Positions 41,578 through 54,789 of a DNA stretch of 64,000 nucleotides are shown here, piece after piece. Positions within the stretch are counted from its first letter, which is position 1. The number at the start of each line of letters is the position of its first letter. This stretch comes from Raja brachyura (taxonomy: Eukaryota), in the NCBI GenBank assembly GCA_963514005.1, contig OY740806.1, forward strand, positions 22,196,001 to 22,260,000, written 5' to 3'. The notes under the pieces were generated by a model. That model saw only the letters and a program-made list of their open reading frames with translations, made no database searches and was not told where the DNA came from. The position numbers and the translations under genes are program-made.

Positions 41578-43967
41578 TAAAGGATGTGACCATCCTAGTA
41601 CTTAAAATTGGATGATTGCAGCAAGATCTTCTGTGGCCATAACATATTGGCTGCAAGTATGAATTCCTCCAAATAATTACAAATTTACGAACTCTAGTGA
41701 TTAGCTGGTATTTTGGTATATGGTCAATAAAGGAAGGCTTTGACTATGTTGACACGCATGTTTCCTCTTCTAGATCTTCTTTGGGTTACCTCAGTTCTCC
41801 ACAAGCATCAGAATTTTACTTTCAAAACAACAAACGAGTAATGTATGTGCAGTGAAGAAATTCTGATCATATAATTTCCTTTCTTTCGTGCAGATGAAAA
41901 TGCTTGGCTGAAAAGTACAATTGTTCCCAACAGGCCAGGCAAATGCGAATGGTTTGCACCTAAATGCAAGGGGCCAATGGACTGGATGGCAACAGTGTAA
42001 CTCGTCATCAAAGCCTCTACTGCACCTATAGACGTTAATTGCTTTGGAAGTTTGGATCGGAATATTCTTACGATGTTGGAAATGAGAACAAAAGGAATAT
42101 GGAGCTATATTTTTTAAAATACACATTTAAGGTGACCTTAAGATTAATTAAAAAGCAAATATCACGTTTCACTCTAAAAGGAAAGGTGTATTTGTTGGTG
42201 GGGTAAAACGAGGAGACATACTGCTTCACTTCCAATTCATTTGGGAAAAGTTCTTGGATTAGCTTTAGGAGACATTTCAGTCACTGAATAAATTGCAAAT
42301 ACACTTCCATTTGTAAAACAAGACATTAATAATTTAGCCTTTTGCAAGAAGCCACATCATATTTTACATTGATTTGGTATGGTTTGATTTGTATATGATG
42401 GAAATTATTATTAGATTAGAAATGTCTATTTGCAAGTTTGGTGCACAAGTGCTTACGATCTTTACATTCAATTTCTATTGCACTAGATATGCCAACTGAT
42501 TTGAAACAAATGAATTATTACCTCTGTTAAAATGGGAAATGGTGGATGACAGTGGAGTGTACATGATGTTCTTAGGTTAATGTGGCAAACAGTAATTTCT
42601 AGGATCGTTAACATTCACAAGAAAGTAAAAACACAGAATATAATCAAAACTGATGGTGATTTCAATGGTGACCTATCACCGATTATCATGGTGACACTGT
42701 AATTACATGGGACATATGCAATTAATGCTACAATATCTGAGCAATATCATCAACACAGAAGCTTTTCATGAAGGACATCTGAGAGCACTCCCTAGGTGAC
42801 ATTAGTCACTATAACAGTGAGGCTGCTTCCCTGTGATTCCCTGCTCCTCCTCATCCTGCACTGTTTTGAAGATATTTCCTAACTATTCCCACTGTGGAAA
42901 CGCTGAAAATACTCAGCCTTTTTATTACTTGAGAAGTAACTGAGTTTGAATGCAATCTCAGGGCATAAATGTTGTCTAACAACCTAAAAAAAACCTATTA
43001 TTTCACATGGTATGTCAGTCCCTCCGGTAAAATTGCAAACTATTTAAAATTATATAAAAAGTTGAATTTTTTATTTTTTTTTGGTTTATATCTTAACCTT
43101 TCATAGAGTGTGAAATAAAGTTTGAAATCTTGCATGGGAGGTTAATAATTTAATCAAACGCTATTGCCGATAAGCCATCCCCAATCAGGATGGTGACATT
43201 TGCTATATAGTGGTGGCTATGTGGTTGATTTTGCTTCCGAAATGTAATCTCTTTTATTCAATTGAATGAATTTTGAGGCAGGGTGCAATGTGCGGATGCT
43301 ACTATATGATGCATTTGAGGCGACTGTCCAAGGCTGAATTTCTTGGCATTTGGTGTTTCCACTTTCCGGTTTGCTATGTGGGGGTTTTAGTTACGTGAGT
43401 GGCTAGTCAGTGATGACATCACTATGGCTAGGTACAGGGAATCCCCCAGAGGTGAAGTCAAACAGCAACTGATGCCAGCAGAGGCTAAGTTTGTGTCTCA
43501 GAGATTCTGAGATATTTATTCCAGGTTTCTTTGAGATCAGTAACTAGCCCATTCCTTCTAAGGTATTAATGCCATAAACAATGGGCGTTGTTTCAGGTTG
43601 TCAATGAAATGATCTATACAACCGTTTCCTTTCATTGAGCGCTTCAAATCCTGACATATATTACATGTGAATTTTGCCCAAGAGGTTGACAACATTATTC
43701 CAATGATTTACATTTATATTCGATCCGGATCCATATTTAGAATCTTATGCAGCTGTGGCATCACTAGTTTATTTTCAGGGGTCCTTTCCCTCCAAATGTA
43801 GGGAGCAGCTCTATAAATGGTAGCACTGTCAAGATTTATGCACACTTGAAAGAAAAAGGCAATTATGCTGGAAGACAGGAATTCCACAATAAACCAATAA
43901 TACTTTTAGTGGCATGGAAGTTGGCTTTCCAACTGATCTGGTTCAACATTCAGTATCAAATACCTAC

Positions 43968-45644
43968 CCTGAAGTAGATAAGTGTGAAGGTGGGTGTTCA
44001 AAAGGAGGACTGTCTTCACCTCTCCACCTTTGGGAAGGGATCTGACTATAAAACTCGCTGTGGCCTGTTGCAGGAGAGAGGGATCCTGTGTAGCTGCCTG
44101 TTGAAGGTGTCAGTGCCATGTGAGGTCTATAACTGGGGCTTCCTCGTCTGCTGCCCTGGCCAGCAGTGCTGCTTTGTGCTGGTGAGGAGGATGGTGAGGA
44201 CCTTCTGGATATGCTAACAACAGCAGGAGGCTGAAGGGTAATTTCAGACATCTCCACAGAGATGCCTGCAGGAAAGATGCCACGGGAAGGCTGCATGATA
44301 CTGGGCCGTGGTCGCGGGCGGGATGAGATCTCTGGGGAGGCGTGATGGGAACTCAGAGGACTCTGACTCAAAGGGGAGAGCCGAGAAGGCTGTAGAACCA
44401 CCTGGTGTAAACTGGCCTCAGTCCTTCTGCCTTGCCTAGGGCTAGGTCTGGGCCTGGGTCTTGGTTCGTACCACCTGGTGTCCAGACTGAATGTGCTTGT
44501 GCCACTGGCAACAGCCTGTCTGGCTGATTCAGTGTAAGGCAATGTGGGTGCACTTATACCATGGCTGGTATGCTTTAGCTGCCCGTGGCTGGTCTCTTGC
44601 ATAGGTTGATGTGGATGTCTTTGAGAGAGAGAGGCAGATCCTTTAGATTTACTGGAAGCTTTGCCAGTCTGACTCTTTGGTGCCTCCAGATGCAGCACAC
44701 TGTGGTACGGTGCTGAGACCTGGAGTGAGGAAGGGGGCCCACCCCTCGGAAGACCAGCCTTTGGCAGTGTACTCTCAGGTGTATCTTGATGGTGTGAGAA
44801 CATAACTGGAGAGCTCTCAATGCTGCTGATAGACAATTTCTTCCTTCTCCATGGTTCAGGAGACCGCATGGTAGTTGGCGTGTGAGTCAAAGGCAGGGTA
44901 CTACTGGAAGTGACCAAATGCTGTCCATCAGGATCGCCGTGATCTGCAGGGAGGGTGGGATGACCATAGGGTCCTTCAGCAAGTAATAGAGGTGAAGACA
45001 TCACTGAACTGAGGGGACTGATATCTGGCATGTAAAATGGCTGACCATCTTGGTCTGCTGAGCTACTGCTGAGGTAGCCATAAAACTGGCTTTGAGGGTA
45101 ACCTTTAGCAAGTCTCCTGGTCTGACCGGTGGCCTGCAGCCTGGCATCTAAGCTTCCCATGCATTCATCTGCATTCTGGAATGATGGGGTGTATGCTGGT
45201 GGCTGTAAGTATGAATCTTGACTGGATGAAAGAGGTGAAAGCTGAGACTTCAAGCTCATAATGGCAGTAGGAGTTAATGTGTCATTGTTTTCCTCGTCGG
45301 ACTGCCGGAATTCAGGATACGTTTCCGTCTCTTCTGCAAAGGGGAAGCCCTCAATCCTCCTAGACTTCAATGATATCTCCATCCCTGTGTGGTCCATAAT
45401 GAAGCGTCCATCAGGGCCTCTGCTGATCAGTTCGATGGGGGTAGTGACATCAGCCTCAGCCTCATGCTTGGAGACACTGTACTTCTTGCTGGTTATTGCT
45501 CGCTTTGTCTTTTTGTACAAGGACATTTCTCTGTCCCTGCCAGGACTCATCATCTTGGCATGTATGGCTTGAGCATCTTCAGAGGAGTCTGATGGAGCTC
45601 GGAGTGTCCTGACGCTTTCAGGACTCACCTTTCCTGAGGAAGAT
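43968..45644 (-). CDS. IGSF9B: IGSF9B large cytoplasmic exon (SSSGKVSPES...TTPIELISRGPDGRF...HLSTSG)
   Basis: 554-aa Ser/Pro-rich ORF with the conserved IELISRGPDGRF motif. Acceptor ggtctctcag|, donor GG|gtaggt. 1677 bp, phase 2 to 2. Confidence 0.96.
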
Positions 45645-46395
45645 CTGAGAGACCAAAATCAGAGGCAACAGTAACCCTGCATACTTTCATGTTTACAATT
45701 TTGCTACTGTCCAGTGAAGTAAAGCATCACTTTATTGCTTTTGCTGCCATTATTCATTAATAACAAGTCCTTTTGACTATTAATTTAATGTCATCAGTTA
45801 TGAAGCTGTGGCAGTTGGAATACATCTCATGAAGATAGGCCTCATTTGGGGAACATTTAATCAGTTATGCAACTATATTATGAATATAATGCAATTTAAA
45901 GTAATAATGAGGGAATTTATAAGTTGATTAATACTGCCAACTGATGCGTGTTTTTACAGCAATAGGATACCAGAGCGATAATGGAGCGGTGAATTAATGG
46001 CACTTTGGTGCGTTGTGTATAGAACAGACAACTATTCTGTTTATGGAAACATAATTCTTCAAGCTACTGCAGATTAAAGATTTAAGAACAAATCCTCCAG
46101 TATCCTGTAGGAAAGCTGTAAATTACATACAGATTTATGTTCTGCTTTAAAATTTAGTAGGATCTATGCGACTAAGGCTGCCAGTTCACTTACAATCAGC
46201 ACAGTCAGAGACATTATAGTATAACCACTTTATTGGTCTCTTTTATTGATTGTAAAACAAAGTCTACTGCTAGTCTGACATGGATCTTACACCAAAGTTT
46301 GGCTCTCATCGCTGAGAGAATGAGTCAAATCAACCACATTGATTTATCACAAGACACAAACACGGACAAAATCATAAAAGGGGCTGGTTACTTAC

Positions 46396-46441: not shown

Positions 46442-48293
46442 CTGGAGGAGAACAAGCATGCGCATTAAACAGCTAGAAGGGAATCAATTCACTTAATATT
46501 AGAAATAACTTTCACACAAAAGCATGGCCGCAGCCCAGGCACATCAGAGTTATCATATTGAAATAACCTCCTGTGATACAATACAAGGGGGTTGATCTCA
46601 GTGACGGATAGTAGAAACAAGCTGGCAGTTTATCGTTCACCTCTGCAGATTTTTATTTCCATAGGGAGGAGATGAGGTGTTTCAGTGCCATAACATTTTA
46701 GAGCTCTATGATATACAATGGTTCATATAAAAATGAACACATTGAGGTTTGCTAGCCGCTGCATTGTGCCAATGCTTTCTTTGGCACAGCATTTTTTCTC
46801 TTATTTTTCCCAGTAATTAGAAAATTAAATATATGAGGTTCTGTTTTTGGCACAATGAGCTTCACCCTCATTATGCCTCTTGCAGTTAAGTACATTTCAG
46901 ACTAGATTTGTCAGCTGGCAATGGGATTTCTATGTAAAAGAGGTTTGGGTAATCTCATTTTTCACGTGAGTTTGCCACAGTGCAAAGTGGCACCTATTTT
47001 GATATCAAATGGATGTCCTCATTTTGATGGACTGCATGGAGTCAGAAAAATAAAATATCTCCCAGCACTGTTCAAAGGGGTCCCTCTAGTTGGTAATAAA
47101 ACACATCATACAGGGTTTTGCACCTAATCTGTCTGTGAGTTATTAATGCTAACACCAAATCACAGATTCTCACAATACATTATGCCATTAAATATGAATG
47201 TGTTCACATCAACAGGAAATAACTGATTGGAAGAGCAACTTAAGTTGCTGAAGTGGGACAGTTCTATTTCACAGGTCAAATACTCTTCAACTGTATGCAC
47301 AAGTCATCATCAAACAGAGAATTAAACCTTGATTTCTTCTCAACATAATTTTGGCATTCAAGTGAAGAATAATAACTGCGAGTACACATCATTCTGTGAT
47401 GAGAGCTCAAACACATTGTTTTGCCAGTAACAAGATGTAAGCAGAATTCATATAGTTTGAACATGGCGTACAAAATATTTAATTACCTCAGAATCCCTCA
47501 GTGTATTGAGTGAAATATAATAGTTACAAACAACTTATTTTCAATATCACGAGCTATGTAGCTAGTCTCACTTGCATGGAATACACACATCATCCATATT
47601 AAATAGATATCAAGGTTTCAAAATAAATTCAGGTACAGCTCGTATTGTTTTCCCGCATCAAGCCTATTTTATTGAATCTCACTGTCCTGGCACTGAACAG
47701 GGTTTTTATTATGTACCTGGATTCACCATGAACCATATAAAATAGTAAGATTAAACGAGAACTTACCAGATTGAAGTTTGATCTTTATTTTATGAGGAGT
47801 TGCGATGAGGGATTTCGTGAAGAACCCGCCAGCACGCATGCGCGACATCTCTTCAAAGCAGCGGTGTGGAATCACAGAACCAACAAACCAAAGAAATGAC
47901 TTGTTATAGTAAGATTGAAGAGACTCTAGTTACCAGTTGACTTTATGATCGAGGGTTGGGAGCGGAGGGCACGAAATCCCTCATCGCAACTCCTCATAAA
48001 ATAAAGATCAAACTTCAAACTGGTAAGTTCTCGTTTAATCTTACTATTTCATTTCGGAGTCACGTGAGTGACTTCGTGAAGACTTCAAAGCTCTGTGATT
48101 ACACGCCCTGGACCACGTCCATGCTCACACACTGCCGTAATACTGATGGAGGAAGTATGTTAACGTATTTCAGACTTGAACAAGCTGAAAAATAATAACA
48201 TTATTGTTAGTACAACAATAAACCCCTGAACTCGGGGACAAACGTTTAGGGACAGCACTTAACGTGCGTAACGTTGCGGGAAAAGGCCACAGG

Positions 48294-48720
48294 TTAGTTA
48301 TGAAACCACTGAAATGTAGTTTCATTGGCCCAGCCCGCTATCGTGAGGACATGCTCCATGAACACCTCCATGGTCCTCGTTCCTGATGTGGATGCAGCCT
48401 TGGTAGAATGACATTTCAAAATGTTTAGTGTCTTACCTGCTGCATCGAATACCACCTTAAGCCATCTGGAGATAGTCTGCACCGTCATTCTGTGACGTGG
48501 GTTTCCATGGGTGACAACAGATCCCATTTCCACACCTGTAGTCGCAGGTCTGTATAGTTTAAGTAACTCTTTCATAAAGCAGTTACATTATTATGGGTTG
48601 ATCATTCTATCCAGGTTTAATTCCTGTAGAGTCTGGACCCGTTGTGCTGTATTCAGTGCTATTGCCATCACCACTTTTGAAGGTGAGTAAGTCCAGTGGT
48701 ACCTCCGTGATAAGCGACCA
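48294..48720 (-). pseudogene. DIRS tyrosine recombinase remnant (frameshifted)
   Basis: TISRWLK...HSTKAASTS...AGWANETTFQWFH resembles the YR HSTR...AGW...F..FY box with catalytic R and Y lost. Upstream LKVVMAIALNTAQRVQTL remnant. Confidence 0.85.
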
Positions 48721-49017
48721 CCTTCTGAGTAGGGTCAACACCACCCTAATCTCTCAGATATTATATCGTGGTCGGGAAGGGATGGATAGAACATATCCCT
48801 CGTAGTTTGGATACCAGCTGGTGAGATCCCACTCCGATGTTGAGCTAGGATGACAGTGCACTACTGGCACTGTATGCAGCACTGTAACTGAGGGCTCATC
48901 ATAATGAGCACATTGGAGATCGTAGCAGATATGTAGGTCATCTTGGTCCGACTACAAAATCCTCTCATATCCTGTGTAGGTGAGGTAGTGCTTCCCAGTG
49001 GACTTTCTCTGCATGAT

Positions 49018-49165
49018 CTATATGACGTCCATGGTCCTGTATGTTCCAGACCTGGGTACATTTTCTGCAACACCTGTCTGATGAGGCAGGATGGGGAAAG
49101 CATAGAAATCCATTTCCCCCAATGTAGCGAGAACTCGTCCATCGCCACACTTGGAGACCACATTC
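49018..49165 (-). pseudogene. DIRS methyltransferase-like (MT) domain remnant
   Basis: AMDEFSLHW and FYAFP...LIRQVLQK pieces in different frames resemble the DIRS DAFxxxW / YAFPP / LIxRVLxK motifs. Confidence 0.7.
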
Positions 49166-49584
49166 TGCAGTTTCTCCTGGGTTTCCTCAGGTACTACAGG
49201 TTCCTCCAGAACTGGAGGACATCTGGTCCAGCTGCAGAGACTGTGCTCTAGTATACGCTCCATCATGCGCTCCATCCGAGCCATGCGACCACTGCCGCAT
49301 CTGCGGACAATAAGTCGACTTCCTCAGGTTCTGGAGAATCTCTGAGGCTTCTGTCATTGCCCCACACCTCGTCGAGGTGATTACAAGGGTGCAAGACAGG
49401 ATGTCGCTGCCTGCCGCTCCTGCGTGGCTAAGCGACTCCCGCGCGGACCTGCCGCTGCTCCGCCGTCTTCCGGACGGAGGCGGCCCGCTGGTCTGATAAG
49501 ACATGATAGCAGTGGTGAGTCGGTCCCGGCCGCCGAAGCGTGGTACCCCGACGTCCGCGCGGGCTTGCCGCCTGTCCTCCAAAG

Positions 49585-49806
49585 GCGACGTTCGGTCACG
49601 TCCTCCACTACAAGGCAGTGCGATGACCGAGATGAGACTACACCGACCTGCAACCAGGCAGGCTCCCTCGGTGCTGAGTCTGTGTCCTCCTTTGGGACAA
49701 AGCGTCGTTCGTTCACGTCCTGACGCTAAAGGGGGTGCGGTGACCGAGATGAGGCTACTCCGACCTGCAACCAGGCAGGCTCCCCTCGGTGCTGAGTCTG
49801 TGCCGG
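49585..49806. repeat. Two-copy ~117 bp tandem repeat inside the DIRS element
   Basis: gaccgagatgagrctacwccgacctgcaaccaggcaggctccc(c)tcggtgctgagtctgtg occurs near 49626 and 49742. Confidence 0.9.
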
Positions 49807-50112
49807 CCGCACATGTGGTCCTCCAGACCCAGGCCTCAATCCTTCCCCGGTCCACGATCTGGTGGCCTGCTCCAGTGGAAGTTGACCCCGGCTCTATGGC
49901 GGGTTTACCGACTGCTGTGCGATACTTCCCCTGGTCCTCTCTCTGGTGACCTGCATATTTGGGGAGAGAGAACGTGCCAAGAATATAGCACGTTACGCAC
50001 CTTTGCTCCACTGTCGCTATGGTTAAGTGACAGAGGTAGGGAGTCAGGGTCTTACCTACCCTGCTCCTGTGCGGTTACCACTTATGGCACCATGGTCAGT
50101 CGTGGTGGAGAA

Positions 50113-50830
50113 TCAGGTCCTGACTGCGCAGGGCTCCCCTGATTTCCGCGTTTTTATCCCGACCCGCAGAGCGGGTGCTGCCGACGTTGCGGGCAGCTCC
50201 AGGAATGGTGGGCGTTGACTCACATCTGGAGGCACCGGTATGTAGGTCCTTGCTGGCCTTCCGGTTTGACCCCGTGGCCTGGAATATGGAGTTTTCCTGG
50301 CCGTTTGTCTGGTCAAGGTGTGCGACCTCATAAGACCCACTGTCTTGGCATGGTCGTCTAAATCCTTGACCTGCTTCAGAAGGTCTTCCCCGAATAGTTG
50401 TCTGGGTGGTGGTGTTGGAGATGCTCTGCATAGCCCCGCAAATTTGGGATTTAGCGTGAGCTTGATGGCACTTTTTCGAAACGCATTTATTTCGTATTGC
50501 GTGTTACATAATAATTCAAGAGCATCCTCCTGTTCGGTGTTCAAGTCCATCCCGTCCACCGACGTCGCAAAAGCGGTAATCCCAGATGTGAGCAGTTTTA
50601 GGATTATCTGTAATTCTTACTTCCTGTGCTCTTATGCCCGGGCTTATATTGCTCCAAATAGGCATGTTTACAATAGGTACATTGAGTGAGTTACAATTAC
50701 TCGGTGCCTTGCACCCATTCATGGCCTCCGCAAGGACCTGATCCTGTAGCTGGTGGTTGGTAGCGGCCAGTTTAGTTTTGAGAGGTTGTCCCGATGATTC
50801 GGGTAACGCAAACTTGGCTGCCACGTACAA
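50113..50830 (-). pseudogene. DIRS gag-like ORF, frameshifted
   Basis: PSNCNSLNVPIVNMPIW and EINAFRKSAIKLTLNPKFAGLC...LFGEDLLKQVKDL resemble DIRS1 gag as recalled. Confidence 0.75.
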
Positions 50831-52150
50831 AAGTACTTACCTGAGGAACCTCAGTTGCCACTGGTTCGTGTGCCAAGATATCCTCTTCTCCTGGCTGCCT
50901 CATGCTACCAATTGACGGTGGGGATATATCCAAAAGTTCCCGGAACTGGACATTTCCTGCAGTTGATTTTGCTGCAGGATCCGTTCCATCATCCTCTCCA
51001 TCCGTTCAATGCGCCCTTCATGGTGCGTAAATGGGAGGTCAGAGCCCTCATGCCCGAAGGAACTCCTGAGGCTCCTATCATCGGCCCGTACCTCATCGAG
51101 GTAATCTCGGTGCCGTGACAAAAATCGCTGCCAGCCGCCTCAGCGAAGCTGTACGACTCCCGCGCGGATCTGCTCATACGCCTCCTTGGATGAGCTAGGC
51201 CCGACTGCCTCAAAGGGCATATGCGGTGTGAAGTCGGCACCTGACGCCTGCGGCGTGGCGACCCGACATCCGCGCGGGCTTGCCACCTGTCCTACTCCTG
51301 GACTCAGGCGGCGTACGGTCCCGTCCTGCCGCTATAGGGGGATGCAGTGACCGTGGCGAGACTCCACCTGTATGAATCCACCTGGTCCAATTAGGTGGTG
51401 AGTCAACACTGGCCCTCCCTGGTCTGCCAGTGGACTCGGGTCTCGGTAAACCACCAGTCCGCAATATAGCGGTCTCTGGTGAAATTCCTGCCCTAAAAGG
51501 GCTTTGTTGTTGAGCTCTATCCCTGGCTCTTTCACGAGGGCTCGGGGAGAAGGGCCGTGCAGCAGCACGTGAAACCCGTTTGCTCATATCAGCCAATGAT
51601 TCTCTCCCTGTTGGAGATAGTGAAAAAATGGAGTCAGGGTCTACCTGCTCCGGCGCCATACCGACTTCCTGCTCTGCGGGTACCCCGCTTGTACACAGCT
51701 GTGTCGGTGGGTCGGGTCCTGTAATCACAGGGCTCCCCGACTTTTGCGCCTTTTCCCCGGCCCGTCTAGCGGGTGCTGTCGTTGTAGAGAGCTCCGGGAA
51801 TAATGGCCGGCGATTCCTTTTGGAAGTCCTGCGGCCTGTACTCCTCATTATCCATGTCCCTGTTGGAGAAAACACATTCAAAACAGCAGGGACAACCAGC
51901 TCAAGGTTGCCTGTACTTACCTGAGTGGCCCTTATGAAGGGCTGGTGGTGAGCTGTCGTTCTGCCATTGTTGAGCAATGGTGAGTGTTGAGCCCGGACCC
52001 ACAGGGTCAACAAGTTGCCCCATTGTAAAAATAAGTTGGGCTTAGAGACAACATGATAATGGCTGCAACTCCATACCCTCTAAATTACAGCACTGGGATA
52101 ATGCAGGCTGTGTAGAGTTGAGTTGGGGCTAACCCCTTACTCTTAGTAAA

Positions 52151-52650
52151 TGCCGACAGCCCGCAGAATCGTGTGGGCTGCGGTGTAAGTCGGGCTGCTG
52201 CTCTGCCATTGCTAACTGCAAATGGCGAGCCTGCAAGCCCCTAGTTATAAAATAACTGCCGACAGCTCGCAGTATCCTTGCGGCTGCGGTGTAAAATCGG
52301 GCTGTGCTCTGCCGTTGCTTACTGCACACGAGAGTCTGCAAGCCCCTAGTTAAAAATAACTGCCGACAGCCCGCAGTATCCTTGCGGGCGGCAGTGTAAA
52401 ATCGGTCTTATGCTCTGCCGTTGCTACTGCACACGGCGAGTCTGCAAGCCCATACTTCTTTAAAAATGCCGACAGCCCGCAGATCCTTGCGGGCTGTGGT
52501 GTAAAATCGGGCTTATGCTCAGCCGTTGCTTACTGCATACGGCGAGTCAGCAAGCCCCTACTTACTTATAAATGCCGCCAGCCCGCGACCTGCGGGCTGC
52601 GGCGTAGAGTCGGCTGCCTCTGCCGTCCTCCGCCGGCGAGTGTGAACCCG
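52151..52650. repeat. Tandem array of five ~105 bp GC-rich double-hairpin units in the DIRS 5' leader
   Basis: Units start at 52151, 52257, 52361, 52467 and 52573 (TGCCGACAGCCCGCA...CAAGCCCC). The fifth is more diverged. Confidence 0.92.
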
Positions 52651-53034
52651 GACCTACCTGGGTCAACGGGCTCTCCCGACTCCATGTACTAGAGCCGCCG
52701 CTGACTGCCCGCATACTGCGGTCCGCAGTCAGTGTTGAAGCGGCCTGGAGTACTCTGAAAACAGAGACCCTGTAAGAAAAAACGGACGGCGGGTTAGTTT
52801 TCCACTTACCTGCAGGTCCAGCAGTGGAGGAGCAACGCTCCTCCCTGCCCGTCTGTCGCACGCGCGTCGACGATATGGCGCGCATGCGTGCTGGCGGGTT
52901 CTTCATGAAGTCACTCACGTGACTCCGAAATGAAATAATGTAGATGTCTCCTTCATGATGTTAATCAAGTGCTTAAGCGCAATTTCAGAGTAACATTGCA
53001 AAGAGTTCCTATGCATTTCACTTTCTCCTATAAT

Positions 53035-53756: not shown

Positions 53757-53975
53757 AACAAAGAACTGCAGATGCTGATTTATACCAAAGATAGATACAA
53801 AGTGCTGGCGAAACTCAGTGGGTCAGGCAGCATACCTGGAGAAAAAGTATGGGCGATGTTTCGGGTCGGGCCTGGGTCGGGTCCGAAGAAGGGTCCCAAC
53901 CCAAAACATCACCCATCCTCTTTCTCCAGAGATACTGCCTGACCTACTGAGTTAATCCAGCAGTTTGTGTCTATC
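53757..53975. mobile_element. Palindromic Penelope-derived short element (degenerate hammerhead)
   Basis: gaactgcagatgctg...ccgaagaagggtcccaacccaaaacatc...tttgtgtcta with inverted arms. Confidence 0.75.
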
Positions 53976-54789
53976 TTTACTACAAAAATGCGGGTCCCCA
54001 TTGACTTCCCCAGTAACCAACTGTGCTGCAATCGTTCGTTCATTGGATCTTGCCTTTACTGAGCAGATGTCCTGCTGGATTAGTTCTTCGTGTGGAACCT
54101 GATATTATGCTGGCTGTGCCTGACCTGTTGTATCACATGTAAGTGGTGCTGGAGCCTGATATAACTGGCAATCTTTTACAGTTCCTGCTAATCCTGATCG
54201 ACTAAATGCTGTGCAAAAGACCATCAAAGCCAATATTCCATTTGCCAAACACTGCAGGTTCAGCTGAAGTAAACAGTAATATACCCTTTAGATTATAATC
54301 AACACCGCAGATTGAAGATTCTGAAGCCATACTGGTTGATAAGGAAGGGGCCAATGCCATTGAAATATGGAATTCTTTCCAATTAATTTAATCAGTTATC
54401 GACATACTCAGAGCAATTTTGTAGAAATGCATTTTTTCCTAACAATGATATGTGTAAATGTGAAGTTAATGAGAAGATAAAGGAGTCGTTTATTGGAGGC
54501 TGAAATTGTAACTGACACAAATAAAGTGCATGTAGTTATTGGAGGTCAAGGGAGCAGTGCACACGTTCTGCCATCAACTGCATCATTTTCCAACTCCCTT
54601 TGCACATCAGGTTGATCCTGCTTGATGACACATTTCATACTGGCCTGATGACTGGACAACATGTTGGCTTGGGATGAGCAGTGACAATATATAAAATTGT
54701 ACAAAAATGTCAACATCAACATCATAACAGAATCAAACTCTGTCACCACTAACCCCTCAGGGTGATCACTAACGTAAAGGCCAGATGGA

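Follow-up and report, generated by a model that had tools for sequence, protein, structure and literature searches.

Non-autonomous retroelements with structured repeats are already known as a kind. LARDs and other non-autonomous LTR elements depend on helpers and contain a non-coding internal region that is structured or tandemly repeated, and retrozymes and other ribozyme-bearing retroelements are likewise non-autonomous and carry repeated structured RNA. In the available sections of two accounts of DIRS1-like elements (PMC3266345, PMC9210276), these elements have inverted terminal repeats, an internal complementary region (ICR) complementary to both ends and an ATT-type junction, and Xenopus DIRS is described with three ORFs; tandem repeats, a leader or a loop do not appear in the available sections of PMC3266345, nor tandem repeats or secondary structure in those of PMC9210276. 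In Ty1 and retroviruses, where function has been tested, structured 5' RNA overlaps gag coding sequence and mini elements are moved by helpers; according to the accessible part of PMC3592414, the first 380 nt of Ty1 are required in cis, and the HIV-1 packaging region may reach into gag.

The window analysed here is a 64,000-nt stretch of the Raja brachyura genome. On its minus strand lies a retrotransposon that shares the inverted repeats, ICR and junction type of DIRS1-like elements and retains relics of their gag, methyltransferase (MT) and tyrosine recombinase (YR), but has neither reverse transcriptase (RT) nor RNase H and carries two leaders and an array of hairpins (Table 1). Compared with the Ty1 5' region and retroviral Psi, structure and function are predicted here, and the segment has been multiplied and no longer codes. 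LARDs differ in being LTR elements with integrase helpers, whereas the source of the present repeats could be traced to gag.

Table 1 Features of the DIRS1-type element and its hairpin array (window coordinates).
Feature	Position	Strand	Remarks
Non-autonomous DIRS1-type retrotransposon	47740..52936	-	5.2 kb; ATTT at both ends; copies end at 52936
Left inverted terminal repeat	52864..52936	-	52864-52917 pairs with 47806-47859 (85%); pairs with ICR 48045-48082 (97%)
First splice-donor-like and acceptor-like sites of leader	52770..52809	-	motif prediction only
Single hairpin upstream of array	52694..52744	-	matches first gag codons of family K
Unit 5, transcribed first	52570..52660	-	hairpin 1 and shortened hairpin 2
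Unit 4	52464..52569	-	two hairpins
Unit 3	52358..52463	-	two hairpins; hairpin 2 mostly deleted in 13/60 young copies
Unit 2	52253..52357	-	two hairpins, weakened
Unit 1	52147..52252	-	two hairpins; carries GCCAT/ATGGC variant
Spacer	51951..52146	-	further predicted hairpins and hairpin-2 remnant (~51951-52011)
Second donor-like and acceptor-like sites	51860..51920	-	from second leader joined behind array; motif prediction only
Broken gag-core relic	50200..50824	-	tblastn 42% to N-terminal part of L159 ORF, two frames
Broken MT and YR relics	48288..49151	-	tblastn 29-50% to L159 proteins
ICR with AAAT circular junction	47970..48082	-	
Right inverted terminal repeat and right extension	47740..47859	-	47737-47819 pairs with 47970-48052 (98%)

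The inverted termini and an ICR complementary to both of them, with its circular junction, give the element a DIRS1-like layout, and the broken recombinase relic covers 0.89 of the YR of the intact family L159, which matches PF00589. Coverage is 0.93 for gag, 0.22 for MT and 0 for RT and RNase H; coding for the latter two is equally absent (coverage 0) from 13 of 14 loci of family M, and at the single remaining locus the match lies upstream of the element. A non-autonomous DIRS-type host with ORFs on the minus strand had already been proposed in a first-pass annotation of the sequence, in agreement with this layout and the missing RT and RNase H. A Pfam search of eight frames of the element gave no match. 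The 40 scored of 1518 candidate copies in the 2.7-Gb genome were all 91-100% identical across the array. The element is young and must use a helper.

In intact DIRS families (L159:4008-7244; L170:4156-7239), one frame of 1028-1078 aa joins the gag-like region, RT, RNase H and MT, and a separate 332-aa recombinase follows; many copies of one family are 99% identical. Within the window element the gag N-terminal relic occurs twice (49239-49784 and 50965-51327), 1.6-1.7 kb apart, one copy having a 117-bp internal duplication, and locus L164 shares the element body (89% over element positions 984-2710) behind a plain leader without the cassette that holds the array. Judged from such sequence relationships, two DIRS families seem to have recombined to give the family in the window. 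In an older copy, L117, the cassette contains a palindromic insertion about 1050-1530 nt from the element 5' end. Array-bearing copies also recur at ~2.9-kb and 50-kb spacing (C8:73.67-73.69 Mb and C38:9.23-9.39 Mb), probably as local duplications. Beside the element, a 564-aa open frame on the minus strand (43964-45658) has no Pfam match and is probably a long host exon; it resembles the cytoplasmic tail of an IGSF9-type protein, and the element may lie within an intron of the gene holding it. An inverted repeat at 53779-53986 (92-nt arms, 82% complementary) belongs to an abundant short repeat that forms 66-bp tandems at other loci.

Tandem Repeats Finder reported one array at 52147-52613 (period 106, 4.5 copies, 84% matches), located 280-790 nt inward from the 5' end of the element. 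All five units were predicted to fold into two hairpins each on both strands, with A/T-rich linkers between them, which bears out the first-pass description of five ~105-bp double-hairpin units. Relative to shuffled sequences, the z-scores of units 1-5 were -6.4, -2.5, -3.6, -6.5 and -4.2 on the plus strand and -5.2, -1.9, -3.6, -6.3 and -3.6 on the minus strand, with stems of 13 and about 21 bp. The structured cassette extends beyond the five units to the hairpin-2 remnant and the upstream hairpin listed in Table 1; over 821 nt it reached z -9.1 as sense RNA and z -11.5 as plus-strand DNA (20 shuffles each).

The same annotation had called the hairpins covarying, and the double change it named, GCCAT/ATGGC in one unit against GCCGT/ACGGC in others, is present. 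Among the window's units, however, only 1 of 32 pairs had changed on both sides, a value equalled in 259 of 500 shuffles, and the RNAalifold covariation term was unfavourable (+3.4); covariation in these units was at chance level. At the lineage level we found three double changes, all CpG transitions, and these compensations had arisen one change at a time, by way of wobbles on one or the other strand. Decayed single copies held 15 such double changes where 18 were expected under independence, and neutral decay therefore produces compensations of this kind. Template-switch correction of the hairpins was rejected, as single copies show no excess of double changes and the compensations ran via single-change intermediates. 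The outcome that the first-pass annotation had itself named as contradicting its reading, no significant covariation with the wobbles explained by CpG deamination, is largely what we observed.

The annotation had further taken several mismatches to be wobbles on the plus strand only, antisense to the element ORFs. Across families, wobble states between classes numbered 11 antisense and 6 sense, a preference that was not significant (p 0.33), and states within classes numbered 180 and 178; from wobble counts the working strand cannot be told. These figures bear on the possibility, already touched on in the first-pass annotation, that the hairpins act on single-stranded antisense cDNA, which is the plus strand here, protecting or shaping the cDNA intermediate. 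DIRS-1 cDNA is described as linear, single-stranded and antisense in the accessible part of PMC7192593, the plus strand folds well as DNA, and the lineage wobbles do lean antisense. However, this lean is not significant when set against the neutral within-class balance, the compensation intermediates were of both kinds, and DNA folding energies were about equal on the two strands; we consider an action on cDNA quite improbable.

Known RNA classes offered no better identity. Rfam searches over the array returned no match at E values up to 10 for the window or up to 5 for four relatives, so that the proposed Rfam comparison did not place the array in a described family, and no hammerhead core was found in it; in this the array differs from the repeats of retrozymes. 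Stable repeated hairpins with fixed bulge positions could suggest an uncharacterised ribozyme or a cluster of small-RNA precursors, as the first-pass annotation had considered. Against this stand the missing Rfam match and hammerhead core, the scarcity of conservation among unpaired bases (2 of 39 are invariant), a recent origin from coding sequence, and the length of the stems, given that Drosha needs a stem of roughly 35 bp. Such a function appears very improbable. Of the specific candidates, a microRNA precursor cluster was rejected on this stem length, and hairpin-ribozyme and C/D motifs gave no consistent match in the array. H/ACA RNA, expected to show pseudouridylation pockets and a conserved H box in the linker, was set aside since linkers and internal loops vary between classes, as judged by eye, and Rfam gave no match. 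A likeness to integron attC sites was dropped because the element recombines at its own ICR junction.

What the first-pass annotation overlooked is the origin of the array: its unit is former gag coding sequence, and sequence comparison makes descent from a single in-frame gag segment nearly certain. The name gag rests on position and homology, the region having no Pfam name. At loci picked by the gag relic the array was present in 34 of 34 cases (14/14 and 20/20), though RT and RNase H were lost; at loci picked by the recombinase, the young intact family included, it was found in 0 of 20, with one weak hairpin-1 match. This match sits inside the gag frame of family G and shares 74% identity across 54 nt with the final unit of older arrays. 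Alignments of G gag with the arrays of family O outscored every one of 300 shuffles in all six comparisons, and the comparison with the window array was less clear (2 to 7 of 300 shuffles). The corresponding 145-nt segment of G is weakly structured (mean z -0.9, 30 copies).

A pattern search recovered closer families. In family K, hairpin 1 and hairpin 2 each gave a single profile match in 30 of 30 copies, in frame with gag and directly preceding a conserved gag helix; the start codon of this family is kept in 18 of 21 readable copies, and all seven full-length loci retain 0.55-0.99 of RT. Family I carries three units of about 135 nt and retains pol homology, and among its 18 readable copies (12 of 30 were unread) the start codon is lost in all and an in-frame stop is shared by 17. 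In family O, which has lost RT, the arrays reach seven units, and families M and Y have 106-nt units. In a tree of 40 leaders, I, O, M and Y are nested in that order, with G and K outside (supports 99/88, 100/100, 100/99 and 99/94). As reconstructed from these leaders, the families display a nested series in which a single copy was tripled with loss of the start codon, after which the array grew to as many as seven units and the unit length fell from 135 to 106 bp. In the coding family K, hairpin 2 already has its upper stem and hairpin 1 is present in a weaker form, with pairing that is better in families I, O, M and Y; the lower stem of hairpin 2 was created where duplicated copies join. Three more distant families have no hairpin ahead of the same gag helix. 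Upstream of the same small hairpin, the gag N-terminus of another DIRS family (L233, L236, L239) contains in-frame tandem repeats peculiar to that family.

To assess constraint, units were detected with DNA profile HMMs. Profile matches scoring below 18 bits, units outside any cluster and classes with fewer than five copies were excluded, and 18 duplicate loci and 2 loci lacking a full 5' end were left out before counting. The 540 hairpin-1 and 531 hairpin-2 matches were grouped into classes, and changes between classes were compared with rare changes within them, which were alike in stems and unpaired sites (0.021 and 0.018 per site). Lineage changes numbered 28 in stems and 63 at unpaired sites, against 531 and 281 private changes (odds ratio 0.24, column permutation p 5e-5), in a test that is favoured by stem columns defined on the same sequences and in which units matched across families may not be true orthologues. 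With linkers, edge units and older families taken out, the deficit persisted at odds ratios of 0.20-0.43 (column permutation p between 5e-5 and 0.007), the strictest subsets giving 0.35-0.43 (p 0.002-0.007). Over all lineage classes, 35 of 58 stem columns were invariant compared with 2 of 39 unpaired ones, and bulges were constant in position and variable in letter.

Measured against the decayed gag body of the same element, the signal of stem constraint is modest. Non-CpG stem columns had changed less often than the relic (2/95 versus 72/898, p 0.038), but stem columns as a whole had not (8/141 versus 91/1074, p 0.33), and CpG stem columns were unprotected (6/46 versus 19/176). Loop columns changed faster than the relic (10/52, p 0.02), and part of the contrast between stems and unpaired sites is therefore due to fast loops. 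Most of one hairpin 2 was lost in two lineages that still spread (15 and 13 of 60 copies), by deletions of 43 and 45 nt with a common 3' end, which makes single hairpins dispensable. On balance, we lean towards the view that the hairpin fold is under selection.

The same data allow a neutral account, in which slippage duplicated the start of gag, a GC-rich and repeat-prone stretch with weak hairpins, conversion homogenised the copies, and the array hitchhiked beside the essential left terminal repeat, its loops mutating fast during retrotransposition. In-frame repeats arose separately in the same gag region of another family, the lower stem of hairpin 2 was made at a duplication junction, covariation is absent, the whole-stem rate equals that of the gag relic, unit number varies and hairpins are lost. 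Given the neighbouring essential terminus, dispensable hairpins, the array-free young family and a third family's own repeats, neutral hitchhiking stays a serious rival. It fits less well with the under-changed non-CpG stem positions, with the excess of invariant stem columns and with a pairing that increased, rather than decayed, once coding was lost, and we regard it as somewhat unlikely.

Constraint that tracks pairing while bulge and loop letters are free also fits a fold better than a DNA motif. This observation, together with the unprotected CpGs, speaks against a role in tuning expression or evading silencing, be it as promoter-like monomers, as a splicing or translation block that keeps the RNA unspliced, or as a small-RNA shield. 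L1-type promoter monomers offer a precedent for such tuning, and the array is GC- and CpG-rich and lies between two predicted donor-like sites. In addition, the DIRS-1 5' segment is reported to be without siRNAs in the accessible part of PMC7192593. We rate a role of this kind as rather improbable.

The reading we prefer, with a probability of roughly 40%, is that the array is a multiplied former piece of gag whose predicted hairpins, repeated along the genomic RNA, act as a cis signal for capturing helper Gag and RT. A short gag piece would have been copied in tandem at the 5' end of a DIRS element lacking RT, the repeated hairpins on the genomic RNA would attract the Gag and reverse transcriptase of a helper element, and a parasite competing for these proteins would profit from more copies of the signal. 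Such a reading implies that the hairpins would form in vivo, that sense RNA would be the working strand and that packaging would be the job; packaging or recruitment as the array's particular task is a tentative assignment, at slightly less than even odds. The array lies directly behind the first donor-like site (motif prediction only; other DIRS families have similar donor motifs in their leaders) and over the old gag start, a position matching that of the Ty1 and retroviral packaging signals and thus fitting a packaging role. In the accessible part of PMC7192593, DIRS-1 RT acts in trans; there, a truncated DIRS-1 without ORF1 still yielded cDNA in Dictyostelium, which counts against packaging. 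The weak structure of the G segment counts against a selected signal, and the absence of the array from the young intact family and of the hairpin from three distant families argues against a cis signal. The literature searched contained no description of DIRS RNA being recognised by its own proteins, and packaging is absent from the available text of PMC7192593. The first-pass annotation had proposed a selected structured module amplified in the leader of a non-autonomous DIRS element. Of this, the amplified hairpin module in the 5' part of such an element stands and stem constraint has gained indirect evidence, while the antisense-strand inference and the ribozyme and small-RNA readings found no support.

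In the literature we searched, DIRS elements are nowhere described with an array of this kind; reviews by Poulter and Goodwin, Repbase entries and supplements lay outside the scope of the search, and prior notice is possible. The interest of the array lies in its traced gag origin together with a testable candidate signal. A bolder and doubtful extension of the preferred reading is that a parasitic DIRS lineage may have turned an ancestral gag packaging signal into a multi-copy RNA lure, its stems polished over successive bursts, in which case the array would mark the DIRS packaging signal. The analysis also illustrates that CpG decay alone yields convincing-looking compensatory pairs. Should the array be a multiplied cis signal, it would single out a 135-nt candidate open to direct testing; even if it is neutral, the genome preserves, with unusual completeness, the successive steps by which coding sequence became a structured non-coding array.
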